Shown piece after piece: positions 34,678-63,064 of a stretch of DNA of 64,000 nt (position 1 is its first letter; every line of letters begins with the position of its first letter). A model generated the notes under the pieces. That model searched no databases and was not told the DNA's origin. It saw nothing but the letters and a program-made list of their open reading frames with translations. The stretch lies in sequence record MK373775.1, one strand, 5' to 3'. A program made the translations under genes and the position numbers. This DNA comes from Escherichia phage vB_EcoM_WFK.

Positions 34678-35768
34678 CGTTATGTTCGATTGAGCTCGCT
34701 AATTCTCAACCCGTTCTCTTATGAACTGCTACATATTACTATGCAGACCAGACTATATCACAATCCCAGAGGGATTCTCCCCATTTCGAGTCGCTTGACC
34801 CTACGTCCGAAGACTAGTCGTTGAACCTTGCTTTGCAATTGTCGCCGTGCCATCGTTTATATGTTGATGGTGATAAATCTTTCTTATCACAATATGGACA
34901 ATTCAATTGAATTCTATTTGGATTTAATTTACATCTGTCATTATGTTTTAGATAAAATCCAGGACCTTTACCAATGTGACCACAAAAATCACACGTGATT
35001 TCTTTTTGTGCAGGATGGGTCCCGTTCTTAACCATTTCTAATGTTTTTGCTGATGTTCTTTTCTTATGGTCTTCTGATAAGAAATGATGTGAACCGTCAT
35101 TTACCCGTTTTGATTGAGTTTCTGACTGCATTTTACCACCGCAAAATACATGAGTACCTTCTTTTATAGCTGCAATATTGCGTTCTTTAACTTTTGCAAT
35201 ATGCTCAGCTTGTTGAAAATTATGTATACCTAATGCAACTCTATTTAAATTAGATTTACGCTGTATTTCACCGTCTAAAAGATGAAATGTACCATTTTCT
35301 ATCTTAGATTTAATAGAGGCAATATTTTTAGCTCGTACTTCAGGGATATTAAAAATCTGGATTTCTCTAGATTTTGCGGCTTTAGAAGCTAATTCAGAAA
35401 TTTCTTCAGGAGAATATTTCATTCTAAGCTTTATAGCATGACAAGCCTGGTAATCTTTTTGAGCTAAATGTATATCATAATGTTCCTGTATAGAAAGGCA
35501 CATCAAATTATCTAAATCATTATTTTCACGGTTACCGTCTTTATGATGGATTTCATATGTTCTTCCATCAGAATCTTTAGGTATAGGTCCGTTAGCATCT
35601 ATCCAAATTTTTCTATAGTTCAATTGTGCATCCTCTTAAAAGTATAATCATATTTATATTATACTAATTAAAGGTGCAAGCAAAACCTTGGCTGCTAGTT
35701 TTCCTATAAAGGACTTTCCAGCAATTAAAGGAGTTTTCGATAAACGTTACCGTTTAAAGGCGCATTTT
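34678..35768 (-). mobile_element. Group I self-splicing intron in nrdB (about 1.09 kb) carrying a homing endonuclease ORF
   Basis: NrdB frame is interrupted by a stop directly after FYVSFA; joining exon 1 (ends in U) to exon 2 restores ...SFACTFNF..., which aligns without gaps to bacterial NrdB; boundaries are approximate. Confidence 0.7.
34814..35623 (-). CDS. Intron-encoded HNH homing endonuclease, I-TevIII-like, full length
   Basis: 269 aa inside the nrdB intron; HNH motif EIHHKDGNRENNDLDNL; C-terminal zinc-finger-like CxxC pairs. Confidence 0.8.
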   Translation of the reverse strand: MNYRKIWIDANGPIPKDSDGRTYEIHHKDGNRENNDLDNLMCLSIQEHYDIHLAQKDYQACHAIKLRMKYSPEEISELASKAAKSREIQIFNIPEVRAKNIASIKSKIENGTFHLLDGEIQRKSNLNRVALGIHNFQQAEHIAKVKERNIAAIKEGTHVFCGGKMQSETQSKRVNDGSHHFLSEDHKKRTSAKTLEMVKNGTHPAQKEITCDFCGHIGKGPGFYLKHNDRCKLNPNRIQLNCPYCDKKDLSPSTYKRWHGDNCKARFND

Positions 35769-36444
35769 ACGCAAAAGATACATAAAAACGAATAGCTTCT
35801 AAGGCATTAATAACGTGCAAACAGAGGTAAAGAGATTTCATTAGCTCACGCTTCCAATATGTCTCATGCTCAATAGCATCTTCAATAACGTCTTCGTCTG
35901 CATTAATTTCTTTTTGGTATTCGATATCGGCTTTAGCGTTTTCCCAATAACGAGTTTTAACCAGAACATCATCGTAATATTTACCTATTGATTCAGCTCG
36001 TTTCATGATTGCTTCGTCTAATACAATCTCATCAAATACCTTAGATGGGTCTGTATAAAGATTTCGCATAATATGAGTGTACGAACGAGAGTGAATAGTT
36101 TCACTGAATGTCCATGTTGCAACCCATGTATCTAATGAAGGGTCGGAAATCAGTGCCATAAGTACCGCAGATGGGGCCCTGCCTTGGATAGAATCTAATA
36201 ATGATTGATACTTAAGATTGTTTGTAAAGATGTCCTGTTGGAACTGAGGAAGCTTATTGAACTGCGCAGAGTCCAACATCAAGTTTACCTCTTCTGGGCG
36301 CCAGAAAAATGACAATTGCTTTTCAATAAGTTCTTCAAAAACTTTATGTCGCTGAATATCATAACGTGCGAGGCCAAGACCAGAACCAAAGAACATTGGT
36401 TCATTCAAAACATCGACTTGTTGTGTGTTAAAAACTGTACTCAT
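35769..36444 (-). CDS. nrdB: Ribonucleotide reductase beta subunit NrdB, exon 1
   Basis: 225 aa of N-terminal NrdB including the diiron/tyrosyl-radical region; 5' splice site inferred after the U following FYVSFA. Confidence 0.8.
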
Positions 36445-41721: not shown

Positions 41722-42114
41722 CTACTTTTTAAAAGTTTTTTGCAAAAGTTCGATGATTTCGTCGACGTTGGTTTCATCTACGATACAATGGATTTTTGTT
41801 ACACCTAAAGCTATACCTTCGTTAGTAGGTTGAGGCTTTACTATATCTACCTCAGTAAAGTATTTGAACTCGTCAGGATAAATCTCAAAATAAGTTTCAA
41901 TTTCACCACCGGCAGAACATACAGTACCATCTTCCATAGTTACACTTACTACGTTTGACGTATCGCTATCATAATCAGGTTCCATTCCGTTTACAACAAA
42001 ACTAGGCCCGTGAAGTTCAATCAATTTTAACATCTTAGCGTTATTGTGTGGTGCTTCTTGAACAAAGTCATCTTTAAATAAAGGGTTAATGATATAAGAT
42101 TTTCCGATTTCCAT
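41722..42114 (-). CDS. Hypothetical protein (frd.x position)
   Basis: 130 aa; early promoter and conserved leader upstream. Confidence 0.45.
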   Translation of the reverse strand: MEIGKSYIINPLFKDDFVQEAPHNNAKMLKLIELHGPSFVVNGMEPDYDSDTSNVVSVTMEDGTVCSAGGEIETYFEIYPDEFKYFTEVDIVKPQPTNEGIALGVTKIHCIVDETNVDEIIELLQKTFKK

Positions 42115-42143
42115 TTTGATTTCCTCATGTTGTTGATAGGTCT

Positions 42144-42173
42144 ATACTAACACATCCAGGGAAGAAGTAAACA
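42144..42173 (-). promoter_or_regulatory. T4 early-type promoter with a conserved leader upstream of the 130-aa ORF
   Basis: Minus strand reads GTTTAC, 17 nt, TAGTAT, then ATCAACAACATGAGGAAA. Confidence 0.45.
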
Positions 42174-45528: not shown

Positions 45529-48500
45529 ATGGTTGACATCAAACGTAAGTTCAGGGCCGAAGATGGTCTTGATGCAGGCGGTGATAAGATAGTTAACGTT
45601 GCGCTTGCCGACCGCACAGTTGGCACCGATGGCGTGAACGTTGACTTTTTGGTGCAAGAAAACACCGTACAGAATTATGACGATACGCGCGCGTATACAA
45701 AAGATTTTATTGTTCTTTATAATAATCGTTTTTATCAAGCTTTAAGCGATATTCCAGCTCCGGCAGGCCCTTTCTCTTTGGTTAAATGGAAGGCAACTCG
45801 TGCAGATGCAGAATGGATTACAGTTCAAGGCGGAGATTTCCAATTATCAGTAGGTAACTCTATTGCGGTTGATACTTCAGCTGGCACTGATATTAATTTC
45901 ACTTTGCCTCAAAATCCTTTAGATGGCGATACAGTTATTTTGTCTGATATTGGCGGTAGAGTAGGCTATGTAAAAGTTCAAATTACGGCAGAGGCTCAAA
46001 GTATTGTAAACTTTAGAGGACAACAGGTTCGTTCAGTTTTAATGACGCACCCAAAATCTAAAATGGTCTTCATTTTTAGCAACCGCCTATGGCAAATGTA
46101 TGTTTCTGATTACGAACGTAATGCAGTCACAGTAACTCCTGCTACGCCATATCAAGCACAACCTAATGATTTTATCATTCGACGTTTTACATCAGCCGCT
46201 CCTATTAATATTACATTGCCTCGTAATGCTAATAATGGCGATATTATTAATTTAGTGGATTTAGACAAATTAAACCCATTATATCACACAATTGTCAAAA
46301 CTTACGATGATACAACTTCTATACGAGAAGCTGGTGTTCATGTAGCAGAAGGACGTAATTTTGCTGATGCTCTTTTTATTTTTGATGCAGCATCTAGTTT
46401 GTGGAGAGTTTGGGAAGGTGACCAGAAATCTCGTTTACGTATAGTTCGTAATGATACTGATTTACGCCCTAATGAAGAAGTTCTTGTTTTTGGAACTGAT
46501 AATAATACAATCTCGACGGTAAATCTTACTTTGCCTACAGATATTTTGTCTGGCGATACTGTTAAAATATCGTTGAATTATATGCGTAAAGGGCAAACTG
46601 TAAAAATTAAAGCTGCTGAAGGCGATACAATTGCTAGCAGTATTTCTTTATTACAGTTCCCAAAACGTTCGGAGTATCCACCTGATGCACAATGGGTTTC
46701 TGTTAGTGAGCTGGAATTTAATGGCGATACTTCGTATGTACCTGTACTTGAGTTAGCTTATATAGAAGATTATTCATCTGAAACAAAATATTGGGTAGTT
46801 CAACAAAACACTGTAACCGTCGAACGAGTCGATGCATCGAGCAATACAACTCGAGCTCGTTTAGGTGTTATTGCTCTTGCTTCTCAAGCGCAAGCAAATG
46901 TTGATTTAGAAAATGCTCCTGGTAAAGAACTGGCTATTACTCCGGAAACATTAGCAAATCGTACAGCAACTGAAACTCGTCGTGGTATTGCTCGTATTGC
47001 AACAACTGCACAAGTTAACCAGAATACCGATTTTGCATTCCAAGACGACTTGATTATTTCTCCTAAGAAATTGAACGAACGTACAGCAACTGAAACCCGT
47101 AGAGGTGTTGCTGAAGTTGCAACTCAGGCTGAAACTAATGCTGGAACAGATGATACCACTATTATTACTCCTAAGAAATTGGATGCCCGTCAAGGTTCTG
47201 AAGTTTTATCTGGTATTGTAAAATACACATCTACGACTGGTACTACAGCTGCTACTATTCGTGGTAATGCTGGGACTAACGTTTATAACAAAGCCGTAGA
47301 TAATTTAACTATTTCTCCAAAGGCCCTTGACCAATATAAAGCTACCCCTACTCAGCAGGGTGCAGTAATTCTTGCTATTGAAAGCGAAGTTATCGCTGGC
47401 GAATCACAAGCTGGTTGGGCTAATGCTGTAGTGACCCCTGAAACTCTGCATAAGAAAACTTCTACTGATGGACGTATTGGTTTAATTGAAATTGCTACGC
47501 AAGCAGAAACTAACACTGGAACTGATTATACTAGAGCAGTAACGCCTAAGACGTTAAATGATAGGAAAGCTACGGAAGGATTATCTGGCATAGCCGAAAT
47601 TGCTACGCAAGTTGAATTTGATACTGGAACTGACGATACTCGTATCTCGTCTCCACTGAAAATTAAAACTCATTTTGATTCTTCTGACCGTACCAGTGTT
47701 AATTCTGATTCCGGACTTATTGAAGAAGGAACCTTGTGGAACCATTATACTCTTGATATTTCTAAAGCAAATGAAACACAACGTGGTACACTTCGTGTAG
47801 CGACCCAAGCTGAATCTAATGCAGGAACTTTAGATGACGTTCTTATTACTCCTAAAAAGCTTTTAGGGACTAAGTCCACTGAAACGTCTGAAGGCGTAAT
47901 TAAGGTTGCTACTCAGGCTGAAACTGTAACAGGAACTTCTGCTAATACTGCTGTATCTCCTAAGAATTTAAAATGGATTGTTCAATCAGAACCATCATGG
48001 ACTGCTACTACGGCAATTCGTGGATTCGTTAAAACTTCATCTGGTTCTATTACATTTGTTGGTAATGATACAGTTGGTTCAACACAATCTTTAGAATCAT
48101 ATGAGAAAAATAGCTATGCGGTATCACCATATGAATTAAACCGTGTACTTGCTAACTACTTACCGTTGAAAGCTAAAGCAGCTGATAGTAATTTGTTAGA
48201 TGGTCTAGATTCTCTTCAGTTCATCCGTAGAGACATCGACCAGACGGTTAATGGTTCTTTAAGTCTTACTAAACAGACCAACCTGAGTGCTCCTTTAGTA
48301 TCTACAAGCACTGCTTCTTTTGGTTCCGAAGCATCTGTTACTCGTAGATTAACTCTTAATGACTCTAGCGGTTCCGAAATATTTTTCACTAAAGGAACCC
48401 AATCTCTTAGTAATAAAGAGAATTTCGTTGTTAGAGCATGGGGCAATAGCGCTACAGATGGTGCCCGTGATACAGTATTTGAAGCGGGTGACGAAACCGG

Positions 48501-49158
48501 ATACCATTTCTATTCTCAGCGCGCTGCTGATAATAAAGTATCATTTAATATTAATGGAACACTTTATTCAACAGGTATTGTTTCTACAAATGGATTAAAT
48601 GTTACAGGTGTTTCTACCTTTACAGGGCCTATTAGTGCTACAGGCGAAATTGTTTCTAGTTCTCCTATTGCATTCAGAGCTATTAATGGTAACTATGGTG
48701 TTATGCTTTATAATGCTGGTAACAGTTCTTATATTGCATTAACTAACTCAGGTGACCAGACCGGGACGTTTAATAACTTACGCCCGATCACGATTAACAA
48801 CGCCACAGGCTTAGTTCGTCTTGACAATGGTGTTCAAATCACGAGTGGTGCAACAATAACTACCGGTGGGTTAACTGTAAATAACAGAATTATTTCTAAC
48901 GGCGTTAAAACCGCCACTGTTTATACCGATAAACCAACAGCTTCTACTGTAGGTTTTTGGTCTATTGACATTAACGATTCTGCTGTATATAGCCAATTCC
49001 CTGGATACTGGACGCGTGATAACAAAGGTAACCGTGACCAAGAAATTAAATATCCTGGTACTTTGACTCAATTCGGCAATAGCTTAGATTCGCTTTATCA
49101 GGATTGGATTTGTTATCCTACAGGTGCAAATGGCGGTAGCATTCGATATACTCGTACC
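45529..49158 (+). CDS. 34: Long tail fibre proximal subunit gp34, 5' portion; the frame then runs into a non-phage insert
   Basis: First 1210 aa are collinear with T4 gp34; after ...GGSIRYTRT the frame enters an adapter sequence and stops at 49179. Confidence 0.9.
49104..49158 (+). repeat. 55-bp direct repeat, copy 1 (left junction of the insert in gene 34)
   Basis: Identical 55-mer TTGGATTTGTTATCC...CGTACC recurs at 49417..49471. Confidence 0.9.
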
Positions 49159-49416
49159 CTGTCTCTTATACACATCTGACGCTGCCGACGACCGATCTAG
49201 TGTAGATCCCGCTGGTCGCCGTATCATTAAAAAAAAAAAAGGGTATGAAGCGGTCACACTAAATATAACTTCGGCTGAAACAGATCATAAGCTGCATACG
49301 ATCGAACGTTGTCACAGAACGTAGTGGTGTACGTAGTATCAAAACTCGAAGCTACCACCACAACAACCTGCGCGACTAGTACACAGAACCACCTGCAAGA
49401 CACGGACGAGCGTAGT
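49159..49416. other. Non-phage insert: Illumina Nextera adapter read-through (Tn5 mosaic end, Read-1 adapter, index-like 8-mer, P5 complement, poly-A) plus about 176 bp of unassigned sequence
   Basis: 49159..49177 is CTGTCTCTTATACACATCT, then GACGCTGCCGACGA, CCGATCTA, a P5 reverse complement with 2 mismatches, and A12; removing 313 bp restores the gp34 frame. Confidence 0.9.
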
Positions 49417-49471
49417 TTGGATTTGTTATCCTACAGGTGCAAATGGCGGTAGCATTCGATATACTCGTACC
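49417..49471 (+). repeat. 55-bp direct repeat, copy 2 (right junction of the insert)
   Basis: Identical to 49104..49158. Confidence 0.9.
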
Positions 49472-49675
49472 TGGCAGAAAAATAAAGATGCTTGGACTTC
49501 ATTTGCAATGGTATTTGATAGTGGCAACCCACCTTCACCTAGCGATGTCGGTGCTATCCCATCTGATAATGCTGTTATTGGAAACCTTACTATTCGAGAC
49601 TTCTTACAATTAGGAAATGTGAGAATTGTTCCAGACCCGGTTAACAAAACAGTTAAATTTATATGGGTTGAATAA
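49418..49675 (+). CDS. 34: gp34 C-terminal portion, resuming in a shifted frame after the insert
   Basis: Translation ...RYTRTWQKNKDAWTSFAMVFDSGNPPSPSDVGAIPSDNAVIGNLTIRDFLQLGNVRIVPDPVNKTVKFIWVE* matches the gp34 C-terminus; no start codon of its own. Confidence 0.85.
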   Translation, partial: WICYPTGANGGSIRYTRTWQKNKDAWTSFAMVFDSGNPPSPSDVGAIPSDNAVIGNLTIRDFLQLGNVRIVPDPVNKTVKFIWVE

Positions 49676-49683
49676 GAGGTTAT

Positions 49684-50808
49684 ATGGAAAAATTTATGGC
49701 AAGGTTTGGACAGGGATACGTCCAAACGCCGTTTTTATCGGAAAGCAATTCAGTTAGATTTAAGCTAAGTATAGCGGGTTCATGCCCGCTTTCAACAACT
49801 AATCCGTATATTTTATTCCAAAATGAGCCTTTAGGGTTGCAGTCTTTTGGTATTGGACTAAATGTTAGGGTGATAAATCCGGAAAATGGAACTATAGTTG
49901 ATAGTAAATTATACAATTTTGCGCCTACAAATAATGCAACTTCAGCTGCATTTATTTCGTTTGTTAATACATACGCAGATAATTTCATTTTCGCATTTAT
50001 TTCCAATAACAAATTTAATTTGCCACCAGAAATAATTGAATGGTTTAAAGCTGCTGGGAGTTCAGTTATACCGTCAATTGAAGTTGCTAGTCTTGTTGAT
50101 ATTTCATATTCAGCGTTTTATGTTTCAGGTAAAAATACTATTGCATTAGAACACATAAAATACAGTAATAAGAAAACAATTTCTGATTACGCAACTCCAT
50201 TAGATATTGTATATGACTCTATTGCTGATATAGGTGCTACCGGCTATCCTAGACGTACATATGAAGCTCTAGAAACGTTTTTATCTCCTGTTGGAGGAAC
50301 TAACAATGAAATAAAAAGGATGCCTACATCATCCCTTGTTACTCCTATCGCAAACTATGGATTAAAGCCTACAGATTTTCTTTATTTGAAATTTCAATTA
50401 ATGGCTGATGAAGCATTACTAGAGGAAGGAACCGCAAGACTTTCAATTCGTTTCTTTAAGACTCCATCTAGCTCTCCTATATCATCTAAAGATATAAACT
50501 TTGATGGAACTGCTGGTGAATGGAAGTTATACGAAGAATATGTTGAAATACCAGCCGAAGCCGATGGCTTTACGGTATATTGTTACCGTACGGCCCCAGT
50601 CGGTCAAGGTGGACTAAGAAATGTTATTTTCACTGAAGTATCATGTAACGGAAGTATAGCAAAACCTGCTGAGTTTGGTATAAACGGTATTCGTGTTAAT
50701 TACATTGATGAATCATTAACCGGTAATGATATAATGGACTTGCCTACTCAGTTATCTAACGACACAGGTAAGGTATTTGGGCAGGAATTTAAAGAGTACA
50801 CAGAATAA
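49684..50808 (+). CDS. 35: Long tail fibre hinge connector gp35
   Basis: 374 aa; size and position as T4 gp35. Confidence 0.9.
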   Translation: MEKFMARFGQGYVQTPFLSESNSVRFKLSIAGSCPLSTTNPYILFQNEPLGLQSFGIGLNVRVINPENGTIVDSKLYNFAPTNNATSAAFISFVNTYADNFIFAFISNNKFNLPPEIIEWFKAAGSSVIPSIEVASLVDISYSAFYVSGKNTIALEHIKYSNKKTISDYATPLDIVYDSIADIGATGYPRRTYEALETFLSPVGGTNNEIKRMPTSSLVTPIANYGLKPTDFLYLKFQLMADEALLEEGTARLSIRFFKTPSSSPISSKDINFDGTAGEWKLYEEYVEIPAEADGFTVYCYRTAPVGQGGLRNVIFTEVSCNGSIAKPAEFGINGIRVNYIDESLTGNDIMDLPTQLSNDTGKVFGQEFKEYTE

Positions 50809-50830
50809 AGGAGACTTCGGTCTCCTTTTC
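50808..50830 (+). terminator. Hairpin terminator after gene 35 (GGAGAC-UUCG-GUCUCC plus T-run)
   Basis: Perfect stem with a UUCG loop followed by TTTT. Confidence 0.55.
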
Positions 50831-50833
50831 GCG

Positions 50834-50841
50834 TATAAATA
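50834..50841 (+). promoter_or_regulatory. T4-type late promoter (TATAAATA) upstream of gene 36
   Basis: Exact TATAAATA 27 nt upstream of the gene 36 ATG. Confidence 0.5.
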
Positions 50842-50867
50842 CTTTAATATTAATAAGGAGACACGAA

Positions 50868-51524
50868 ATGGCCGATTTAAAAGCCGGAAGTACAGTTGGT
50901 GGTTCCGTCATATGGCATCAAGGCAATTTTCCTTTAATGCCAGCTGGCGATGACATCCTATATAAAACATTTAAATTATACACCGAATATAACAAGCCAA
51001 AAGCGGCTGATAACGATTTCGTATCTAAAGCAAATGGTGGGACATATCTCAAAAAGGTAATCTTTAACGAAGGTGTTGCAGTCAAAACAGCAGATGACCA
51101 AACGAATGGCATTTTTTCTGGCGGTGGTGACGCCGCGACATTCGACCAAACAAACATGGATATTGTTTCGTGGTATGGTATTGGGTTTAAATCATCTCAA
51201 GGTACAGGTGAAAGAACTGTTGTAATTGATACTCGCACCGGTAATATAAGTTCTAAAGGCGTTATTGAAGCATCTCAATTCAGAGCCACAACGTTAGCAC
51301 CTTTAAATAATTACGACCTTACTCGCAAAGATTATGTTGATAGTCAAATAAATACAGTTAATGCTAATGCAAACAGTCGTGTACTCCGTTCAGGAGATAC
51401 GATGACCGGCGCGCTAACCGCCCCAAACTTTTTCTCACAGAATCCTGCATCTCAACCCTCGCATGTTCCACGATTTGACCAAATTGTTATTAAGGATTCT
51501 GTTCAAGATTTCGGCTATTATTAA
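50868..51524 (+). CDS. 36: Long tail fibre distal subunit gp36
   Basis: 218 aa; size and position as T4 gp36. Confidence 0.85.
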   Translation: MADLKAGSTVGGSVIWHQGNFPLMPAGDDILYKTFKLYTEYNKPKAADNDFVSKANGGTYLKKVIFNEGVAVKTADDQTNGIFSGGGDAATFDQTNMDIVSWYGIGFKSSQGTGERTVVIDTRTGNISSKGVIEASQFRATTLAPLNNYDLTRKDYVDSQINTVNANANSRVLRSGDTMTGALTAPNFFSQNPASQPSHVPRFDQIVIKDSVQDFGYY

Positions 51525-51532
51525 GAGGACTT

Positions 51533-54500
51533 ATGGCTACTTTAAAACAAATACAATTTAAAAGAAGCAAAACTGCAGGAGCACGTCCTGCCGCTTCAGT
51601 ATTAGCCGAAGGTGAATTGGCTATAAACTTAAAAGACCGTGTACTTTTTACTAAAGATGACCAAGGAAATATTATTGATCTGGGTTTTGCTAAAGGTGGT
51701 AGTATTGACGGGAATGTTATTCATACTGGCAATTATAACCAAACTGGCGATTATACTTTAAATGGCACCTTCACTCAGACAGGTAATTTTAATTTAACCG
51801 GTATTGCTCGAGTAACACGTGATATTATTGCCGCTGGGCAGATTACGACTGAAGGCGGAGAACTTATTACAAAAAGTTCAGGTACAGCACATGTTCGTTT
51901 TCATGATTCGGCTGATCGTGAACGTGGCATTATTTATTCACCGGCTAATGATGGATTAACTACGCAAGTAGTTAATATCCGCGTTAAAGACTACGCCGCT
52001 GGTGATGAAAGCACCTATGCATTTTCGGGCAGTGGACTATTTACTTCACCTGAAGTATCAGCATGGAAATCTATGTCAACTCCTCAGATTTTGACAAATA
52101 GAGTTATTACTAATAATAAATCTACGAGCGATTATGACATTTATTCTATGGCAGACAACGTTCCATTGTCTGAAAGCACTACTGCTATTAATCATCTCCG
52201 TGTTATGCGCAATGCTGTAGGCGCTGGTGTATTCCATGAAGTTAAAGATAATGATGGAATAACTTGGTATACTGGAGATGGCTTAGACACTTATCTTTGG
52301 TCGTTTACCTGGTCCGGTGGATTGAAAGCAGGCCATTCTATTTCTGTTGGTACTCCTGGTGGCAATAAAGGATACTCTGAATTAGGGACTGCTTCAATTT
52401 CTCTTGGTGATAATGATACTGGATTTAAATGGCATCAGGATGGATATTTCCATACAGTAAACAACGGAACAAGAACTTTCATTTACGGTCCTGCGGAAAC
52501 ACAAAGCCTTAGAAAAATGGTTATGGGTTATTCTCCGGATGGTGTTCTTATGACAACGCCACCGACAGAAAACTATGCTTTGGCTACTGTTGTTACTTAC
52601 CATGATAATAATGCATACGGCGATGGTCAAACACTTTTAGGATATTATCAAGGTGGTAATTACCACCACTATTTCCGTGGTAAAGGCACTACAAATATTA
52701 ACACTGCAGGCGGATTGTTAGTTACTCCAGGCAATATTGACGTTATTGGTGGTTCTGTTAATATCGATGGTAGAAATAATTCTTCTACGCTGATGTTTAG
52801 AGGTAACACAACAGGATACAGCTCAGTTGATAATATGGATATTAAAGTTTGGGGTAATACGTTTGTTGATCCAAGCGGAGGTATCCGTAAAAACATTATG
52901 GAAATTTCTGATGCAACTAGCTGGATGAGCTATATTCAAAGACTTACTACTGGCGAAGTAGAAATGAACGTTAATGGTTCATTTGAATCATCTGGTGTTA
53001 CTGCTGGAGATAGAGGAGTTCACACAACAGGTGAAATTTCATCTGGAGCAGTGAATGCTCTTCGTATTTGGAACGCAGATTATGGAGCCATTTTTAGACG
53101 TTCAGAAGGAAGTCTTCATATTATTCCAACTGCTTATGGCGAAGGCAAAGATGGCGATATTGGTCCACTTCGCCCGTTTAGTATGGCTTTAGATACCGGT
53201 AAAGTTACTATTCCAGATTTACAATCAAGTTACAATACGTTTGCTGCTAACGGTTATATTAAATTTGTTGGTCATGGAGCGGGTGCCGGCGGTTATGACA
53301 TTCAATATGCTCAAGCGGCTCCTATTTTCCAGGAAATTGATGATGATGCTGTAAGCAAATATTATCCTATTGTTAAACAGAAGTTTTTAAATGGTAAAGC
53401 TGTTTGGTCTTTAGGTACTGAAATTAGTTCAGGTACATTCGTTATTCATCATCTGAAAGAAGATGGTTCACAAGGCCATACGTCTCGTTTTAATCAAGAC
53501 GGTACTGTTAACTTCCCAGATAACGTTTCTGTCGGCGGCGGTGAAGCTACTATTGCTCGCAATGGTAATATCTGGTCTGATATCTGGAAAACGTTTACTT
53601 CAGCAGGCGACGTAACTAATATTCGCGATGCAATAGCTACTCGTGTTGCTAAAGAAGGTGATACGATGACCGGTAGGTTGACTTTATCTGCTGGAAATGA
53701 TGCCCTTGTTTTAACTGCAGGCACGGGCGCTTCATCGCACATCCGTAGTGATGTAGGTGGTACAAATAATTGGTTTATAGGCAAAGGCGGCGGTGACAAT
53801 AGTATAAGTTTTTACAGTTACATTACACAAGGCGGTGTAAACATAACAAATAACGGCGAAATAGCGCTTTCTCCTCAAGGACAAGGAACATTTAATTTTA
53901 ATAGAGACCGCCTTCATATAAACGGTACACAATGGACCGCACACCAGGCTGGCGATTGGGGAAATCAATGGCGCCAGGAAGCTCCTGTATTTGTGGATTT
54001 TGGTAATGTCGGTAATGATAGTTATTATCCTATTATTAAAGGAAAATCTGGTATTACTAATGAAGGGTATATATCTGGTGTAGATTTTGGTATGCGACGC
54101 ATTCCTAATAACTGGGCACAAGGTATTATTCGTGTAGGTAATCAGGAAAACGGTTCCGACCCACAAGCTATCTTCGAATTCCACCATAATGGAAACATGT
54201 ACGTTCCTGACATGGTTAAAGCTGGAGTAAGAATATCAGCTGGTGGAGGTGACCCTGCATGGACAGGCGCATGTGTTGTTATTGGTGATAATGACACCGG
54301 ATTAGTTCATGGTGGTGACGGCCGAATCAATATGGTTGCCAATGGTATACATATTGCAAACTGGGGAGCAGGCTATCAATCTCATCCTGGGCTTTGGGAT
54401 TCAACCGGTGCTTTTTGGACAGAAGTTGGAAGAGCTATCGTTTCTCATGGGCATCTCGTTCAGGCAAATGATAGTTATTCAACGTTTGTCCGTGATGTTT

Positions 54501-54844
54501 ATGTCCGTTCTGATATTCGTGTTAAAAAAGACCTTGTTAAATTTGAAAATGCTTCTGAGAAGCTTTCAAAAATTAATGGTTACACTTATATGCAGAAGCG
54601 AGGCCTAGATGAAGAAGGTAATCAAAAATGGGAACCTAATGCCGGTTTAATTGCCCAAGAAGTTCAAGCTATTTTACCTGAATTAGTTGAAGGCGATCAG
54701 GATAGTGAAGCTTTACTTCGTTTGAACTATAACGGTGTAATTGGTTTAAATACAGCTGCAATCAATGAGCATACTGCAGAAATTGCAGAACTTAAATCAG
54801 AAATTGAAGAACTTAAAGCATTAGTTAAATCATTGTTAAAATAA
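51533..54844 (+). CDS. 37: Long tail fibre distal subunit gp37 with a C-terminal intramolecular chaperone (Peptidase S74-like) domain
   Basis: 1103 aa; the C-terminal ~110 aa (from SDIRVKKD...) carry the endosialidase-chaperone-type motif pattern (S-D-x-R-x-[17 protein letters not shown]) and a terminal coiled coil. Confidence 0.9.
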
Positions 54845-54848
54845 TAAG

Positions 54849-54864
54849 AGGGGCTTCGGCCCCT
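54849..54864 (+). other. UUCG-tetraloop RNA hairpin between 37 and 38 (no U-run; Shine-Dalgarno sequence immediately downstream)
   Basis: AGGGGC-UUCG-GCCCCU followed by TGGAGG and the gene 38 ATG. Confidence 0.5.
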
Positions 54865-54875
54865 TGGAGGTTTAT

Positions 54876-55670
54876 ATGGCAGTAACAGGACCGTGGGTAG
54901 GATCGTCTGCAGTAGTTAATACAGGACAAAATTGGATGGGCGGCGCGGCCCAACGATTAAGAATGGGTGCTCCATTTTGGATGAGTAATATGATAGGTCG
55001 ATCTGTTGAAGTAATTCACACGCTTGGAGCAGACCATAACTTCAATGGTCAATGGTTCCGAGATAGATGTTTTGAGGCAGGTAGTGCACCTATAGTGTTT
55101 AATATTACTGGAGATTTAGTATCATATTCTAGAGATGTGCCACTTTTCTTTATGTATGGGGATACGCCTAATGAATATGTTGTTCTTAATATTCATGGTG
55201 GTGTTCATATGTGGGGTCGTGGTGGTAATGGTGGATACACTCACTCAGGAGGCGACGGTAACGGTACACAAGGCGGTCATGTTATTCAAAATGATATCGG
55301 TGGACGGCTTCGTATTTGGAACTACGGTGTTATAGCTGCTGGTGGTGGCGGTGGTGGTGGTATTGCATATCGTCCACACTCAGGGGCAAACTGGCAAGAT
55401 ATCGGTGGCGGTGGTGGTCGACCTTTCGGTGGCGCTGGCGGCGGCGGCTATTCTGGCGGTGGAGCTTCTTATGAAGGTCCGGGTGGTGGATATAACTATG
55501 GTAACGCTCACTCTGGGCAGGGTGGCAATGCTGGTGCAGCCGGACAAAACGCGTGGTCTGACGGCGGTAAAGTTCTAAAAGTTGGAGCAGGTGGTGCGTC
55601 TGGTCATGCAGTGTTTGGATCTTCTCCAACTTGGGGTGCTGTTGGAACAATTTACGGACCAAGAGTATAA
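54876..55670 (+). CDS. 38: T2-type receptor-binding adhesin gp38 (glycine-rich motifs with interspersed variable segments)
   Basis: 264 aa from the ATG (the track start is TTG); conserved N-terminal gp37-binding region; C-terminal half has poly-Gly motifs separated by short variable blocks. Confidence 0.85.
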
Positions 55671-55700
55671 TTTGAATAAATATCCTTAAAAGGAGGGTCT

Positions 55701-56357
55701 ATGGCAGCACCTAGAATATCATTTTCGCCCTCTGATATTCTGTTGGGTGTTCTAGATCGCTTGTTCAAAGATAATGCTACCGGGAAAGTTCTTGCTTCCC
55801 GGGTAGCTGTCGTAATTCTTTTGTTTATAATGGCGATTGTTTGGTATAGGGGAGATAGTTTCTTTGAGTACTATAAGCAATCAAAGTATGAAACATACCG
55901 TGAAATTATTGAAAAGGAAAGAAATGCACGCTTTGAATCTGTCGCCCTGGAACAACTCCAGATAGTTCATATATCATCTGAGGCAGACTTTAGTGCGGTG
56001 TATTCTTTCCGCCCTAAAAACTTAAACTATTTTGTTAATATTATAGCATACGAAGGAAAATTACCTTCAACAATAAGTGAAAAATCACTTGGAGGATATC
56101 CTGTTGATAAAACTATGGATGAATATACAGTTCATTTAAATGGACGTCATTATTATTCCAACTCAAAATTTGCTTTTTTACCAACTAAAAAGCCTACTCC
56201 CGAAATAAACTACATGTACAGTTGTCCATATTTTAATTTGGATAATATCTATGCTGGAACAATAACTATGTACTGGTATAGAAATGATCATATAAGTAAT
56301 GACCGCCTTGAATCAATATGTGCTCAGGCGGCCAGAATATTAGGAAGGGCTAAATAA
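55701..56357 (+). CDS. t: Holin T
   Basis: 218 aa, same length as T4 holin; N-terminal transmembrane segment and large periplasmic domain. Confidence 0.93.
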   Translation: MAAPRISFSPSDILLGVLDRLFKDNATGKVLASRVAVVILLFIMAIVWYRGDSFFEYYKQSKYETYREIIEKERNARFESVALEQLQIVHISSEADFSAVYSFRPKNLNYFVNIIAYEGKLPSTISEKSLGGYPVDKTMDEYTVHLNGRHYYSNSKFAFLPTKKPTPEINYMYSCPYFNLDNIYAGTITMYWYRNDHISNDRLESICAQAARILGRAK

Positions 56358-56630
56358 TTATTTGTTCGTATACATCTCTAGATATCGATATACACTCTCA
56401 AACCCCTCGTTGAATTCGTCGATGAGGGTTTTCTTATCTTCTTGAGTTAATTCAGAAACAATTTTACGGAATGAATTCTGATTTAATTTTCTACCTTCAT
56501 GCGTTACTCCAATCTCATTCAGAAATGCAATAAAATTAGCACGATTTTCAACAATATCTTCTCTGGAAAATTTAATCAAAATAGATGCAACAGTAATAAT
56601 TTCACGAACTGTATCAATGTTTTTATTCAT
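56358..56630 (-). CDS. asiA: Anti-sigma70 factor AsiA
   Basis: 90 aa, near-identical to T4 AsiA. Confidence 0.92.
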   Translation of the reverse strand: MNKNIDTVREIITVASILIKFSREDIVENRANFIAFLNEIGVTHEGRKLNQNSFRKIVSELTQEDKKTLIDEFNEGFESVYRYLEMYTNK

Positions 56631-56791
56631 TAACTATACCACTCAATTAGTTGACTTTGTTATAATATCATCAGACACTTGATTTGTAAACTGGTCTGTG
56701 TTATTTTCTTCAAAAATTTTTTCTACGAATTCCTTGAACGACTCACGTTCCTGAGCTGCATTATGCTCGATTACCATTTCAAGATTATGAC

Positions 56792-57070
56792 TCATTCGAA
56801 ATAATCTTCAATTTCGTAATCATGGACATAAATCATTATAGTTTTTAATACATCATCAATACTTTTTCCTGGAGCTGGAATTACGTAAAAATATCCTGCT
56901 TTTGAGAGGTCTTTATAAGTTCCAACCAAGAAATCATTATTCTCGAGATGTAGTTCTTCAACTAATTCATTAACAATTGAGTGGTATAAATTTGGTAGAA
57001 ACTTATATAGCTTTTCTAGAATATCAATTTTGATTGTGTATTGAACCACAGACTGAGAATCAATAATCAT
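56792..57070 (-). CDS. arn: Arn anti-restriction protein (McrBC inhibitor)
   Basis: 92 aa, near-identical to T4 Arn; acidic DNA-mimic-like composition. Confidence 0.85.
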   Translation of the reverse strand: MIIDSQSVVQYTIKIDILEKLYKFLPNLYHSIVNELVEELHLENNDFLVGTYKDLSKAGYFYVIPAPGKSIDDVLKTIMIYVHDYEIEDYFE

Positions 57071-57153
57071 AGACCTTCCCCTTATGTTTCTGTTTGCGAT
57101 TAGATTCTTTAAACGCTTTCTTCTTATCTTTATGAACAGAAGCTTTATTAAAA

Positions 57154-57372
57154 TTATGTTTTGCGACTAAATTGTTCATAGTGCTGAATTACCTCTCTCA
57201 AACATTTGCATGTGAATGAAAACTTTTTAGCTACACCACATTCAAATATATGTTCTCTTAAATCACATGTATCGGTATATCCCATCTCAACAATAAAATG
57301 CCGTATTAGATTTTTATCTTTATCATTGAGAGAATTAAAATAATCAGATTTTGAATTAATTTCCCTGGCCAA
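57154..57372 (-). CDS. Hypothetical protein (arn.x/motA.x region)
   Basis: 72-aa ORF. Confidence 0.35.
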   Translation of the reverse strand: MAREINSKSDYFNSLNDKDKNLIRHFIVEMGYTDTCDLREHIFECGVAKKFSFTCKCLREVIQHYEQFSRKT

Positions 57373-57652
57373 ATTGAATCACCTTCAGTTGACGTTTTAG
57401 TTCTTTTATCATTTCTTCGTTCATCGCAATATAAAGATCGCGTAAAGCAGGTTTTAGCATTCCATTTACCGGAGAACTAAATGGGCATACATAATCTTTT
57501 CCTACGAGCTTTTTAGTGAATTCCATATCACAGAACTGAAATGCCGGTTCATTGGCATAAATTCCCCAATTAGTTGACATCATTTTATTGGCATATTCCA
57601 ACGCCTGGATTTGATTCATAATTCCATCAATTTGAAACTTTTTAATATTCAT
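57356..57652 (-). CDS. Hypothetical protein
   Basis: 98-aa ORF, translationally coupled. Confidence 0.4.
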   Translation of the reverse strand: MNIKKFQIDGIMNQIQALEYANKMMSTNWGIYANEPAFQFCDMEFTKKLVGKDYVCPFSSPVNGMLKPALRDLYIAMNEEMIKELKRQLKVIQFGQGN

Positions 57653-58113
57653 TAATAAAGGTCCTCTGAATAAAGTTCTTTCTCACTTCCACCACGTTCA
57701 ATACGTACCTGTCCAGCATATGTTGCAATAATCATTGCTTCTTCACGCGTCCAGTAATTAGAGTATTGGTCAATAAAACCTTGGTCGTCACCACAAACTT
57801 GTTGCGAGACTAATTGAGGACCAACTATATCAAGTACTTCAGCCATATCTTTAGAGTAATGACGAACTCCAGGAATAATCAGAGTTCCGCCGCTCTTCAA
57901 TTTAAACCTATTAGCTGCACATACTATAACACGTTGAACTTTTTGGTCATTGTTCCAATAGCACGTTTGCCAACAGATTTCAGGAACTTCATTCATTATA
58001 TCATCAGCAGAATAATTATAACCGTAGGACTGGAATTTTTCTGCTAGACTTTCAGGAGTCTCACGAGACAAGGCCAAATCTAATAGCTCTAAACGTTCTT
58101 TAAATGATTTCAT
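57652..58113 (-). CDS. Hypothetical protein
   Basis: 153-aa ORF with a 1-nt overlap on each side. Confidence 0.45.
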
Positions 58114-58439
58114 TTAAACCATTCCTTAATACGTTGCCAAATAGATTTTTGTGCTTGTTTATTTACACCAATCGAACGAATAACCGGTTGTGATTGCTGA
58201 TATTCTTTATAATCTTCTTTATAGATTTCGTAAGCCGCATCAACAAATGAACTGATCGCTGCCATGTAGTTTTTACGAAGGCCAAATGGCGCATCATTAT
58301 TTTCACGAATAACCATATATTGGCCTGCTTTAATCTTTACAATTGTCCCTAAATAAGCCCCGTGGTACCAAATATCCCATCCTTCCTGAGTAGGTTCTGC
58401 ACATTTACGAAGTTCGTTAATAATATTCAGCTTATTCAT
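58110..58439 (-). CDS. Hypothetical protein (motA.1 position)
   Basis: 109-aa ORF. Confidence 0.45.
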
Positions 58440-58449
58440 TATGTATTCC

Positions 58450-59082
58450 TCACAGTACGTTAGTTACAAGGGTAATGATTTCTTTGGACACATTAGGGAA
58501 GTCAATGTAAGTATATTTACCACCGATCTTAATCTTAACATCATTTTCAAGAGAAGTAAACAGCTTTGATTCAGTTTCTGACATGTTGTATGCAAAGATT
58601 CTAAGAGCGCCATCTCGACGAATTTCGATCTGACGAATACCTAGAACTCGTTTTGCAAATCGAACTTCCAAGTTACTACGGTTTTCACCAATTTCCTTAA
58701 CTTCAACTTTATCTTTAATATTTTCAAAAACAAAGTTTGCTAGTTCATGCATTTCAGGAGTAACTCCACGTGCTTTTCTAGTGTTACGTTTCTGAAGAAG
58801 TTCTGGAGCATTTTCTTGAGCAAATAGGTCTGCAGCTTTTTGGATAATATCCATTGCTTCGCCTGTTGCTACAAGTCCATCACCAGATTTTTCGACTAAA
58901 CCTTTCTTAATCAATACACCAATGTTAGAGTTAACAACCGATGCATTGTATTCTGCTTCCAGAGCTTCACGGACATTGGCAGCAGTGGTGAAGTTGTTCT
59001 TAATGATATAAACCATTATTGCAGCAGTTTTTTCATTCAGAACGTTTTCAGAAGCTTTGATGATGTAAGTAACTTTAGACAT
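58450..59082 (-). CDS. motA: MotA activator of middle-mode transcription
   Basis: 210 aa; N-terminus as T4 MotA; early promoter and leader upstream. Confidence 0.9.
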   Translation of the reverse strand: MSKVTYIIKASENVLNEKTAAIMVYIIKNNFTTAANVREALEAEYNASVVNSNIGVLIKKGLVEKSGDGLVATGEAMDIIQKAADLFAQENAPELLQKRNTRKARGVTPEMHELANFVFENIKDKVEVKEIGENRSNLEVRFAKRVLGIRQIEIRRDGALRIFAYNMSETESKLFTSLENDVKIKIGGKYTYIDFPNVSKEIITLVTNVL

Positions 59083-59159
59083 TTTATTTCTCCAATTTGG
59101 TTGTTTTGTTTTGATAGGTCTATAATATCATGTTTTAAGCACATGTAAACTGTTTTGTG

Positions 59160-59186
59160 AGAAAAATGCACAAAAGGGAGCCGAAG
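59160..59186 (-). terminator. Hairpin terminator after gene 52 (GGGAGC-UUCG-GCUCCC plus T-run)
   Basis: Minus-strand hairpin followed by TTTTGTGCATTTTT. Confidence 0.55.
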
Positions 59187-59267
59187 CTCCCTAATCATGC
59201 TTGTCCAACCAATACAGCCAAATCACTAGTGCAGCTATTGCACCGAGAAATCCTAAGGCTAGGGCAC

Positions 59268-60593
59268 TCAAAGTGCCTCCAAGTCTTTAGTGTACTCTGT
59301 CACAACATCAGTAGACTTCCAATACTCATTTTCTTCTTTCTTAGCTTTAGCTTCTTCTGCTAGTTTACGTGCTTCATCGGAAGTGATATGGAAGATGTTA
59401 AGTCCTACCAGTTTATCGACATGTTCTTTATACATTTCGATTTGTGCTAGCTCTTCAGTCAAAGCTTTACGGGTCTTGCCCTGAATCACAATTTCGCCAC
59501 TGATAACTTTTTTGATGAAGTGTGCCTTAGCAAAAGCAAGTTTAAATGCTTTTTCAGATTCAAGGATTTTGTTATCAATACGTTTCTGAACGTAAGTCTT
59601 ACGGACTTCAACAAAATCTTTGATTAAGTCCACTACGTTATCGTAGACCGCTAATTTACCCTTTTCATTAATCACTGTGATGTTTTGTGAACGACGTTCG
59701 ATGAGACTAAAATCTTTCATGATTTTTTCATGACGTAGCTCTTCATCGTCAGGAAGCGAGTACTCTTTACGGAACTTCACCTTAAATCCAAAGCCGTGTT
59801 CACCACAATCATCTTCCCATGAGATTAGACCTTTGTCTTCCAACGGGTCAAGAACCTTACTCACATACGTTTCACGGTCGAATTTATATGGGATTTCAGT
59901 TATCTGCATTTGAGTGCGAGATGTGAACTTATATGTTCCGTGAATCTCATAACGCCCATCAACTTCATGCACTTCACCACGGAATTCCGGGAATTCAACT
60001 TTTGGTTTAGTGACATTTTTACCTTGAAGAGCTTGTAATACAGCCTTTTTGACTGATTTAAAACTATGAGGCAGAATATTTGTTGCGTAACCGGTTGCAA
60101 TACCAGAGACGCCATTCAAAAGAACTGTCGGAATAATAGGAAGATAGAATTTTGGTGGAATGTGTTCTTTATCTTCATGAGCTGGAGCATATTCAGTATC
60201 TTTATATACGTTATAGAAATTTTTACTTACACGAGCAAAAATATAACGAGATGCTGCAGCTTTTTGGACTGTTCGAGAACCAAAGTTGCCTTGGCCATCT
60301 AACAGTGGATAGTTGTTGTTCCATGTGTTAGCCATCAATGCACCTGCATCTTGTGCAGAAGATTCACCATGGTGATAACCTAAATCTGCAACACCGCCTG
60401 CAATTGACGCAAGTTTATGAAATTTTTCTTTATTACCACGAGCCAAATCTAACGCACGATGAACAACAAAACGTTGAACCGGCTTAAATCCATCAATCAT
60501 GTTTGGGATTGCACGGTTTTCAACGGTGTACATCGCATATGCTAAGGCTTCGTTATCAATAATACTTTTTAGATTACGAGAATTCAATTGCAT
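59268..60593 (-). CDS. 52: DNA topoisomerase II medium subunit gp52 (GyrA-like breakage-reunion domain)
   Basis: 441 aa, collinear with T4 gp52. Confidence 0.93.
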   Translation of the reverse strand: MQLNSRNLKSIIDNEALAYAMYTVENRAIPNMIDGFKPVQRFVVHRALDLARGNKEKFHKLASIAGGVADLGYHHGESSAQDAGALMANTWNNNYPLLDGQGNFGSRTVQKAAASRYIFARVSKNFYNVYKDTEYAPAHEDKEHIPPKFYLPIIPTVLLNGVSGIATGYATNILPHSFKSVKKAVLQALQGKNVTKPKVEFPEFRGEVHEVDGRYEIHGTYKFTSRTQMQITEIPYKFDRETYVSKVLDPLEDKGLISWEDDCGEHGFGFKVKFRKEYSLPDDEELRHEKIMKDFSLIERRSQNITVINEKGKLAVYDNVVDLIKDFVEVRKTYVQKRIDNKILESEKAFKLAFAKAHFIKKVISGEIVIQGKTRKALTEELAQIEMYKEHVDKLVGLNIFHITSDEARKLAEEAKAKKEENEYWKSTDVVTEYTKDLEAL

Positions 60594-60597
60594 ATTT

Positions 60598-60738
60598 TCA
60601 CCATATTAATGAACGAATAACCATTATAACATCTGAAATGAAAAGCACTACTTGGATTAGCCCAAACATCACACCGTAGTACAGAACCGTAAGCAACAAC
60701 AAGAGCCCGAAGGCTCCTGCTAAGATTTTCTTAATCAT
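60598..60738 (-). CDS. Small hydrophobic 46-aa protein, below the track cutoff (region where T4 has 52.1/ac/stp)
   Basis: ATG ORF MIKKILAGAFGLLLLLTVLYYGVMFGLIQVVLF..., one or two predicted transmembrane helices; hand-translated. Confidence 0.3.
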   Translation of the reverse strand: MIKKILAGAFGLLLLLTVLYYGVMFGLIQVVLFISDVIMVIRSLIW

Positions 60739-60884
60739 TACTCGCCTTTTAACACGTTAAGAAGAGCTAAGACCGCTAAGGTACCTTGTGATACGGCCTG
60801 TTGAAATACTGTTGTTTCGCCTGTAACTAAAGTGCTAACGAATAAAAACGACCAACACAGCAATGCAATAATCCATGCTACCAT
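60738..60884 (-). CDS. Small hydrophobic 48-aa protein, below the track cutoff
   Basis: ATG ORF MVAWIIALLCWSFLFVSTLV...; stop overlaps the next ATG (TAATG); hand-translated. Confidence 0.3.
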   Translation of the reverse strand: MVAWIIALLCWSFLFVSTLVTGETTVFQQAVSQGTLAVLALLNVLKGE

Positions 60885-60936
60885 TTTAATTACCTCAAAA
60901 ATAAATTAAAGGCCCAACTTAATAGGCCCGTATAAA

Positions 60937-61383
60937 TTAGTAACTCTGCAGAATGAATTTGAAATTATCAGCCAGAAGACGGTTCATTTCAGTGAGTGTT
61001 TGATATTCTGATGTATGGTTGCGAGTGAATGCCAGAGCCAATTGACCTTTACCATAACCAGTGGTCAGTGGTTTCATGTTCTTAGCTGCAACAAAGATTA
61101 CATCATATTCAATATTGTTAGTGCCCATGGTACGGGCTAGTTGCGAACGGCCTTGACGAATGTGAGAAAGAATTGCATCCAACCCTTGTTTAGAACGTTG
61201 ACGTCCTACAAAGAACCGTGCTGCTACTTGTCGCCAATCAGATGAACCTTTAACAAAGAAGTAAAAACCTTCACGAGAACGAAACTCTTTAGAAACTTCG
61301 GAACCGTATTCGCCATTACGAACTACTGCAACAACTTCACCACCAACTGCCAGAAGGTCTTTACGAGTTAAATATTTGGACAT
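60937..61383 (-). CDS. ndd: Ndd nucleoid disruption protein
   Basis: 148 aa; strong similarity to T4 Ndd as recalled (…GFYFxVK…RFxVGxQRSKQG…LSHIRQxRSQLART…). Confidence 0.8.
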
Positions 61384-61459
61384 GCTAATTTCCTCAATTG
61401 ATTAATGTTTTTGTAATCCATGAGAGCATTATACTCTGCTCTCAAGAGTTTGTACAATT

Positions 61460-61660
61460 TTATTCGGCCATATCAGAACGTTCAAAAAGCTCTTCAACAG
61501 TTAAACATTCAGTGTCATCTTCAATAAAGAATCGAGTCCAACACGTTGGGGCGATGCAGTTATGAGTTTGTCCGGCGATAGAAGCTACACGAATAAGCTG
61601 CTGGCCATTATTCAGGACAAATTTTTCACCAATTTCAACATCTTTAAAAAGCTTAGCCAT
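61460..61660 (-). CDS. Hypothetical protein (ndd.x region)
   Basis: 66-aa ORF with an early promoter upstream. Confidence 0.4.
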   Translation of the reverse strand: MAKLFKDVEIGEKFVLNNGQQLIRVASIAGQTHNCIAPTCWTRFFIEDDTECLTVEELFERSDMAE

Positions 61661-61910
61661 TTTGTGTTCCTCGTGTTTTGATAGGACTACTATACCATAA
61701 TCCTACTGTGTTGTAAACAATTAAATTACATTAAAATATGTTAAAGCCAACCATGTTCCAGTGAACGAACATGCGATGTAAAAACCCGTATCACAAATTG
61801 TTCTTAGTACAATAAGAAGTGCATTTTTCATAAGTACCTCAATGCAATTGAAAATATTATACAAATCATAGGGATACTAAGCAACCATATTCCGATCCAC
61901 ATTTTAGAGC

Positions 61911-62174
61911 TCATATCTCAACTTCCACGAGTTCCATATATCCTTTGTTGATAACCTCTTTAAGGTCTTTAGAAAGAATGACATTAAAATGGTCATTCAT
62001 ATGTCCATTAACCAGACGAGTTATTTCGGCTTCAGATGACATATAAGGCACGTCTGAGTCCCAATGAGATAGTCCCAAATGGGTATAAATCATCCCTTCG
62101 TCGTCTGCAGTGTTGTACATTGAAACAAATTCGCCTGTTACTTTATGTTTTGCGTAGAAAAATTTAAATTTCAT
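61911..62174 (-). CDS. Hypothetical protein (ndd.x region)
   Basis: 87-aa ORF with an early promoter upstream. Confidence 0.4.
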   Translation of the reverse strand: MKFKFFYAKHKVTGEFVSMYNTADDEGMIYTHLGLSHWDSDVPYMSSEAEITRLVNGHMNDHFNVILSKDLKEVINKGYMELVEVEI

Positions 62175-62242
62175 AATGTTATCCTCTTTTAGATAGGACT
62201 ACTATATCATAGTCCTACTTAGTTGTAAACACTTTTATGAAA

Positions 62243-62800
62243 TTAAAGATGAAGATACCACCCGTTGTAGTTGCTCTTGCGGACGATTTTCTTTAGGTCT
62301 TCATGGTCTCCCACGAACTTTATAGAATAAGAGAAGACGTCAGGTGAGGTTTCTTTGACATTCAATATAATAATACAGTCAGCGACTCGATGATTAAGGA
62401 AGGGCCCTATGTTGATTCCGTTGCCACCCGGATAATCACCACCGTATCCTGTGGTAACCGAAATCCATTTCGAATCCATCTGATGGGTCTTTACTTCTAC
62501 GCGTAGACCACAGTACTTAGGATGAGCTAACACGTCCCATGCATACGTGTACGGGTCTTCTACATCTTCAATACCTTTATTAACATATCCATCTAGCCAA
62601 TTTGCTACTACATACTCTGCAAAGACTGCAACCTTACAACGTCGAACAACGTCTTCTTTTATTTGACCTGGATCTTGTTTCAACGAGTACCGAGCAGTAT
62701 CAGCAATCTTAACCTTCATTTCGCTAGTCAAAAACTCATTCGACAGGATAAATGTCGGAAGACTCTTCAGCCTCAACAGCCCCAAGTTCGTCTTTACCAT
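62243..62800 (-). CDS. denB: Endonuclease IV (DenB), start set to the internal ATG with AGAGG Shine-Dalgarno
   Basis: 185 aa from MVKTNLG..., matching the T4 DenB length and its position next to rIIB; the start remains ambiguous. Confidence 0.6.
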   Translation of the reverse strand: MVKTNLGLLRLKSLPTFILSNEFLTSEMKVKIADTARYSLKQDPGQIKEDVVRRCKVAVFAEYVVANWLDGYVNKGIEDVEDPYTYAWDVLAHPKYCGLRVEVKTHQMDSKWISVTTGYGGDYPGGNGINIGPFLNHRVADCIIILNVKETSPDVFSYSIKFVGDHEDLKKIVRKSNYNGWYLHL

Positions 62801-63023: not shown

Positions 63024-63029
63024 AATTAC

Positions 63030-63060: not shown

Positions 63061-63064
63061 ATTA

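Follow-up and report, generated by a model that had tools for sequence, protein, structure and literature searches.

Gene 34 encodes the proximal subunit of the long tail fibre. In the window, by which we mean the whole 64,000-nt stretch of DNA analysed here, its reading frame runs out of phage sequence and into a block, within 49104-49471, where a sequencing adapter and further non-phage bases stand between two copies of one 55-mer. The region is that of a Mosigvirus, an RB69-like T-even phage. The locus therefore raises the question of whether the block is part of the phage genome or was made while that genome was being assembled and finished and, if the latter, by which route.

Layout of the block

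By scripted comparison, positions 49104-49158 and 49417-49471 form an exact 55-nt direct repeat, both copies consisting of genuine gene 34 sequence, the second also by alignment to the closest relative, MK373774.1. The identity stops abruptly, with not one extra base on either side: the left flanks read TTTATCAGGA versus CGAGCGTAGT and the right flanks CTGTCTCTTA versus TGGCAGAAAA. An independent repeat search found this pair to be the sole exact direct repeat of at least 35 nt in the 64-kb window. Copy 1 abuts the adapter directly at 49158/49159, and 258 nt of non-phage DNA (49159-49416) separate it from copy 2; the bases leading up to 49416 read GACGAGCGTAGT, and the phage sequence resuming at 49417 reads TTGGATTTGTTATCC.

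The non-phage DNA opens, on the plus strand, with the Tn5/Nextera mosaic end CTGTCTCTTATACACATCT (49159-49177, 19/19 positions). It continues with GACGCTGCCGACGA (49178-49191, 14/14), the reverse complement of the Nextera Read-1 primer segment TCGTCGGCAGCGTC, then with an 8-nt i5 index slot, CCGATCTA (49192-49199), and with the reverse complement of the P5 flow-cell sequence (49200-49228, 27/29, mismatches at 49209 and 49212). A run of 12 A residues (49229-49240) and 176 nt without assignment (49241-49416), which we read as base calls past the end of the template, complete it. Taken together, 49159-49228 matches the reverse complement of the full Nextera i5-side adapter at 67/70 positions. The fixed spacing of a library molecule is kept, with GACGCTGCCGACGA, an 8-nt index and then GTGTAGATCTCGGTGGTCGCCGTATCATT (27/29), a layout also seen in 27 other phage records. 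Nowhere else in the window, on either strand, is the mosaic end matched, even at two mismatches, and it was absent from all 100 dinucleotide-preserving shuffles of the window; chance origin is no issue. All of these elements had been picked out by an earlier sequence-only reading, namely an exact 55-bp repeat around the insert, an exact mosaic end from 49159, the Read-1 adapter in reverse complement, an 8-mer where an i5 index would sit, P5 with two mismatches, 12 A residues and then about 176 bp, and direct comparison found each of them at the same coordinates.

The orientation of 49159-49240 is that of a Read-2 read-through of the i5-side adapter followed by an A run, the latter presumably a read of the poly-T linker on the surface-grafted P5 oligo. 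The index differs by one mismatch from GCGATCTA, which occupies the same position in an adapter remnant of Bacillus phage Maceta (MH538296.1) and which we take to be the reverse complement of index N501/S501, TAGATCGC. All three adapter errors fall within the distal 37 nt, which fits a single read of falling quality and not a consensus of many reads.

Effect on gene 34

As assembled, gene 34 spans 45529..49179 on the plus strand in the ORF list, a stretch annotated in relatives as the long tail fibre proximal subunit or gp34. Its 1216-aa product consists of 1210 native residues followed by LSLIHI from the adapter, which also supplies the stop codon, so that the translation ends GGSIRYTRTLSLIHI*. 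The orphaned end of the gene, identified from the repaired ORF, lies at 49472..49675 on the plus strand and comprises 67 codons and a stop (WQKNKD...VKFIWVE*). Deleting 49159-49471 (313 nt) yields an ORF of 3834 nt encoding 1277 aa and identical at 3834/3834 nt to the CDS at 146121..149954 of MK373774.1 (product QBQ77002.1). The earlier proposals that gene 34 is falsely truncated, at 1216 rather than 1277 aa, and that removing 313 bp rejoins it in frame are thus borne out base for base.

Two further claims about this gene need amending. Two spurious ORFs had been ascribed to the insert. One of them, a 66-aa ORF at 49124..49324 on the plus strand that runs through the adapter into the noise, is insert-made: it is absent from MK373774.1, and its product matched no Pfam family. 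The other, at 49426..49725 on the minus strand, is already present unchanged in MK373774.1, including its stop codon within repeat copy 2, and is an antisense ORF whose existence does not depend on the insert. Gene 34 had also been called the main receptor-binding fibre gene, which it is not; gp34 makes up the proximal half of the fibre, the receptor-binding parts being gp37 and gp38. In T4, gp34 is an essential fibre protein.

Comparison with relatives

A megablast search with 48400-50200 matched 80 phage records, 43 of which span the query with 86% of it covered in two pieces; such coverage means that these 43 records join the flanks without the block. The best match, at 100% identity, is Escherichia phage vB_EcoM_WFL6982 (MK373774.1). 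The query contains 1488 phage bases, comprising the 3' end of gene 34 and the start of gene 35, over which RB69 shows about 98% nucleotide identity.

We then aligned the whole window to the 100000-164279 stretch of MK373774.1. It matches 100591..164279 in two blocks of 49158 and 14584 nt at an identity of at least 99.97%, with window 1-49158 corresponding to 100591-149750 and window 49417-64000 to 149696-164279. On MK373774.1 these blocks share exactly 55 nt, so that this relative carries one copy of the 55-mer and no insert at all. Beyond the 313-nt block, the window differs from it at three small sites: 2 nt are deleted, there is a single SNP, and a 5-nt block is substituted. Window position 64000 corresponds to base 164279, the final base of the MK373774.1 record, so the source of the window must have been laid out in the same arbitrary linear order; this shared layout fits a re-sequenced stock of WFL6982 or a sibling arranged after it.

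Apart from the insert, coding differences from MK373774.1 are confined to the distal fibre. In gp37 (51533-54844), a SNP at 53873 changes Thr to Pro in GEIALS[T/P]QGQ. In the gp38 adhesin gene (54876-55670), 55449-55453 reads TATTC versus GTACG in MK373774.1, changing Val-Arg to Tyr-Ser within the glycine-rich stretch GGGG[YS]GGGAS of the Pfam GP38 domain. The window's gp37 and gp38 variant alleles are absent from all other phage records, and its gp38 is absent from the protein collection. These differences could mark a host-range variant of WFL6982, or could be errors of the same unpolished assembly. The 2-nt deletion, at 24963/24964 relative to MK373774.1 125554-125555 (TCTC to TC), is intergenic and lies about 39 nt upstream of a minus-strand gp30.7-like gene; it may reflect dinucleotide slippage or an assembly error.

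The 176-nt stretch

The bases between the A run and copy 2 resemble neither the phage nor anything else that we searched. Their G+C content is 48%, versus 38% for the window, with near-even composition and homopolymers of at most 4 nt; five of six frames contain stops, and the remaining frame lacks a start codon. A blastn search (word size 11, E<=10) of 50,697 phage records, 5,426 complete E. coli genomes and 72,556 plasmids returned no significant match, only chance matches of 19-43 nt at E>=2; PhiX should presumably be among the phage records searched. The database search of 49241..49416 that the earlier reading had called for thus found nothing in phages, E. coli or plasmids, in keeping with its statement that these bases could be assigned to no phage gene. 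Five 24-41-mers drawn from the stretch gave no exact match in IMG/VR, the GTDB species genomes or JGI metagenomes, GTDB being scanned with two different 24-mers and the JGI metagenomes with two different 24-26-mers. Such exact-word scans tolerate no error, and a noisy copy of a real sequence could escape them in these three collections, whereas blastn would catch a noisy copy of phage, E. coli or plasmid DNA. The insert likewise had no Rfam match at E<=1.

We also compared the 176 nt with the post-adapter tails of Maceta, JSF5, TAC1 and one IMG/VR contig, contaminated records that are described below. Alignment scores were within the range of shuffles in all four comparisons, and the best shared word, a 10-mer with Maceta, was equalled by 6 of 300 shuffles. 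A fixed junk sequence common to contaminated records is rejected on these local alignments. We interpret the stretch as having the appearance that base calls made after the end of the template should have.

Origin of the block

Judged from the sequence and its relatives, the block is almost certainly an artefact of assembly or finishing and not phage DNA. The earlier reading had proposed just this, an adapter artefact flanked by a duplication, and the identity of the adapter, the insert-free relatives and the exact repair of the gene all agree with it.

How the artefact arose is a separate matter, on which the history of the nearest relative is informative. WFL6982 was sequenced from Nextera libraries on a MiSeq v3 600-cycle run and assembled with SPAdes at "55kmer", and the circularly permuted contigs of T4-like phages were put into the order of published relatives (PMC6563267). 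For the window, k=55 and rotation are inferred by analogy, being borrowed from the paper on this near-identical phage (PMC6563267).

On that footing, we consider it likely that the whole chain of events ran as follows. One library fragment would have carried a very short insert ending at 49158, and its Read 2 would have continued past the insert, across the entire adapter and into the flow-cell oligo, which would account for the A run, before yielding about 176 meaningless calls. The 258 non-phage bases fit one 300/301-cycle MiSeq read, leaving 42-43 nt of insert. In a k=55 de Bruijn graph, such a read would form a dead-end branch off the 55-mer node at 49104-49158. A circularly permuted genome would give a circular graph, and the assembler may have cut the circle at the branching node, so that the contig started with the 55-mer, circled the genome and ended with the same 55-mer plus the dead end. 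In these terms, 49104-49158 would be the 3' terminal overlap of the original contig and 49417-49471 its 5' terminal overlap. Rotation to the gene order of a published relative would then have pasted the old end (49416) to the old start (49417) untrimmed, and the result would be a 55-mer, adapter, noise and a 55-mer inside gene 34. A chain of this kind would account for three features that a generic chimeric read leaves unexplained, namely the length of the duplication (exactly 55 nt), its end right at the adapter, and the direct passage from noise to clean phage sequence.

Two steps of this chain deserve comment. With k=55 alone, attaching the branch needs a read of at least 313 nt (55 phage bases plus 258), which is more than a 301-cycle read provides; smaller k values (21, 33) run first, or longer reads, would solve the problem. 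In addition, SPAdes normally clips short, low-coverage dead ends, and the survival of this one is not obvious; contaminated public records show that dead ends often do survive.

Other routes to the same sequence have to be weighed against this one. The earlier reading had favoured a chimeric or untrimmed read incorporated into a contig, and its adapter read-through stands. Its account of the right junction fares less well: a read that has passed the end of its template cannot re-enter phage DNA, and 49416/49417 is therefore more likely to be a contig end joined to a contig start. For the artefact to have arisen wholly during assembly, one read, chimeric or untrimmed, running from phage through adapter and noise back to phage would have had to be taken up as a loop or bulge, with neither a contig end nor a rotation involved. 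The two junctions are 258 nt apart, close enough for a single 300-nt read to span both, and internal adapter insertions without a contig-end signature do exist, as in the P22H1 terminase gene (33 nt). However, the template is exhausted after P5 and the A run and offers no way back to the same 55-mer, the adapter lies at contig ends in nearly all other assemblies, and a duplication that has the documented k as its length and starts just k bases ahead of the adapter is what a graph node would give, whereas a chimeric read leaves it unexplained. We therefore regard this route as unlikely. A slim chance attaches to the window being an edited or simulated copy of MK373774.1, to which the artefact and small changes were added after assembly by hand, by script or for a test set. 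Such a copy would account for a window that equals MK373774.1 save for the 313-nt block, a 2-nt deletion, a SNP and a 5-nt substitution, for variant alleles private to the window, for 176 nt of near-even composition, and for the fact that the truncated gp34, the window's gp38, the phage-adapter junction 30-mer and the noise are on record in no collection searched. That absence would be explained equally well by a newly deposited sibling or re-sequenced stock, the collections being dated 2025. The duplication matches the real k of the laboratory that sequenced WFL6982, the errors are confined to the distal part of the adapter, and an A run followed by noise is the pattern of real contaminated records; the agreement in k and the realistic errors favour a real assembly. 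Even if right, this reading is not biology.

A genuine insertion with a target-site duplication, whether a mobile element, an intron, a Tn5 mini-transposon or an engineered cassette, has next to no chance of being correct. Perfect direct-repeat flanks and one Tn5 mosaic end are what might suggest it, but the index, P5 and A run follow the mosaic end in the exact order of a library molecule, the block is absent from every relative spanning the region, no RNA family and no protein family was matched, the 176 nt are crossed by no open frame that has a start codon, and the insertion would remove the last 67 residues of gp34. A Tn5 insertion is rejected on two further counts, as there is one mosaic end with its inverted partner absent even at two mismatches, and the duplication is 55 bp as opposed to the 9-bp target-site duplication expected of Tn5 transposition. 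A group I intron or homing endonuclease is likewise rejected, with no Rfam match at E<=1, no Pfam match and none of the 43 spanning records carrying the block. It is hardly conceivable, too, that the 258-nt block, or at least its 176 nt, is physically present in some DNA molecule of the stock, which could be the case if, for example, a library-derived or engineered fragment had recombined into gene 34 or the bases came from an organism absent from the databases.

Other features of the window

Two observations elsewhere in the window bear on its annotation. At about 34175-36444 (MK373774.1 134767-137036), the reference annotation divides the ribonucleotide reductase beta subunit between two CDSs, which are separated by an 810-nt 'hypothetical protein' CDS that has the look of an intervening mobile element. 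Next to nrdA, the same annotation has a second CDS named 'group I intron endonuclease'. At the Rfam gathering threshold, the whole window gave no match to any RNA family, group I introns included. Separately, a 46-nt motif, TTTCATAACGTTTTCCTCATGTTGTTGATAGG...TAGTATCACA, occurs in three copies (18014-18059, 32491-32536 and 42109-42154) that are 76-78% identical to one another. In minus-strand orientation, the motif resembles a conserved block of promoter, ribosome-binding site and start codon of minus-strand genes.

Consequences for the record

The value of these results is in curation only, as the block is contamination of a well-known kind and not a real feature. As assembled, the record carries a gp34 of 1216 and not 1277 aa, an orphaned 3' end and a junk ORF, and the block could be mistaken for a pseudogene, split gene or new insertion, be it by automatic annotation or in comparative work on tail fibres. 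Deleting 49159-49471 repairs the record: gene 34 then becomes 45529..49675 minus the block and encodes 1277 aa. The combination of adapter, A run and noise, bracketed by a repeat of k-mer length, is a signature that can be screened for.

The same adapter in other public assemblies

With 49159-49240 as query against the phage collection, we found the same Nextera adapter in at least 27 GenBank/RefSeq phage records besides the window, mostly at record ends and in some cases internally. The loci include MZ092003.1 at about 49150-49424, LR595870.1 / NC_049386.1 at 1295-1329, NC_049948.1 at 50020-50099 and KY883634.1 at 131943-132142. In IMG/VR, an exact 33-nt adapter core occurs in at least 120 contigs, many of them from one metagenome, 3300045988. 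Among the matches listed, 120 of 121 occurrences (120 loci) point outward and are at most 87 nt away from the end of the locus DNA, and the single internal occurrence abuts an NN scaffold gap. As a rule, then, the Nextera i5-side adapter marks a contig end. We looked in the literature for a paper devoted to adapter contamination of public assemblies and found nothing specific.

Several of these records resemble the window in detail. A runs follow the adapter in Maceta (A16), TAC1 (A10) and two IMG/VR contigs (A11 and A16), and Vibrio phage JSF5 (KY883634.1) has a long A-rich run. In Maceta, the adapter lies 23 nt from the record start and points outward, with index GCGATCTA, one P5 error, A16 and 18 random-like bases. 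In JSF5, which is declared circular, the adapter has one P5 error, and the A-rich run and about 66 random-like bases then complete the record. Paenibacillus phage Pd_22F carries adapters of the P5 side and of the P7 side in a back-to-back arrangement, separated by poly-G and poly-C; this looks like two joined contig ends. The 33-nt piece inside the P22H1 terminase gene is without a contig-end signature. CDSs have been annotated across the adapter in TAC1 (the split tail-fibre gene), P22H1 (the 3' end of terminase) and ev017 (a 'hypothetical protein').

The window's block can be placed among these cases by what it shares with them and what it does not. In JSF5, Maceta and at least 120 IMG/VR contigs, the same adapter is found in the same phage-to-adapter outward orientation, and in JSF5 and Maceta it comes with occasional P5 errors, an A run and random-like bases; the circular declaration of JSF5 moreover joins such a tail to the start of the record. 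In all of these, however, the tail is still terminal, whereas in the window the tail and the k-mer overlap lie mid-gene, as would follow from rotation. SPAdes contigs of circular genomes offer a second parallel. A terminal overlap of k-mer length is a general property of such contigs, in which, as we propose for the window, an exact direct repeat of the largest-k length marks the point at which the graph was cut; there, though, the copies stand at the contig ends and one is trimmed, whereas the window keeps both, with what we take to be a 258-nt dead end between them.

The closest internal counterpart is Acinetobacter phage TAC1 (MK170160.1), in which the adapter at 22591-22670 lies inside a tail-fibre gene that is annotated as two 'tail fiber protein' CDSs, TAC_0042 and TAC_0043. 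Like the window, TAC1 combines i5-side adapter read-through in a tail-fibre gene with an A run and an exact flanking direct repeat of phage sequence. Unlike the window, its repeat is 25 nt long and not 55, and it returns to phage sequence via a forward copy of the adapter (index, Read-1 primer and mosaic end), where the window does so after 176 nt of noise.
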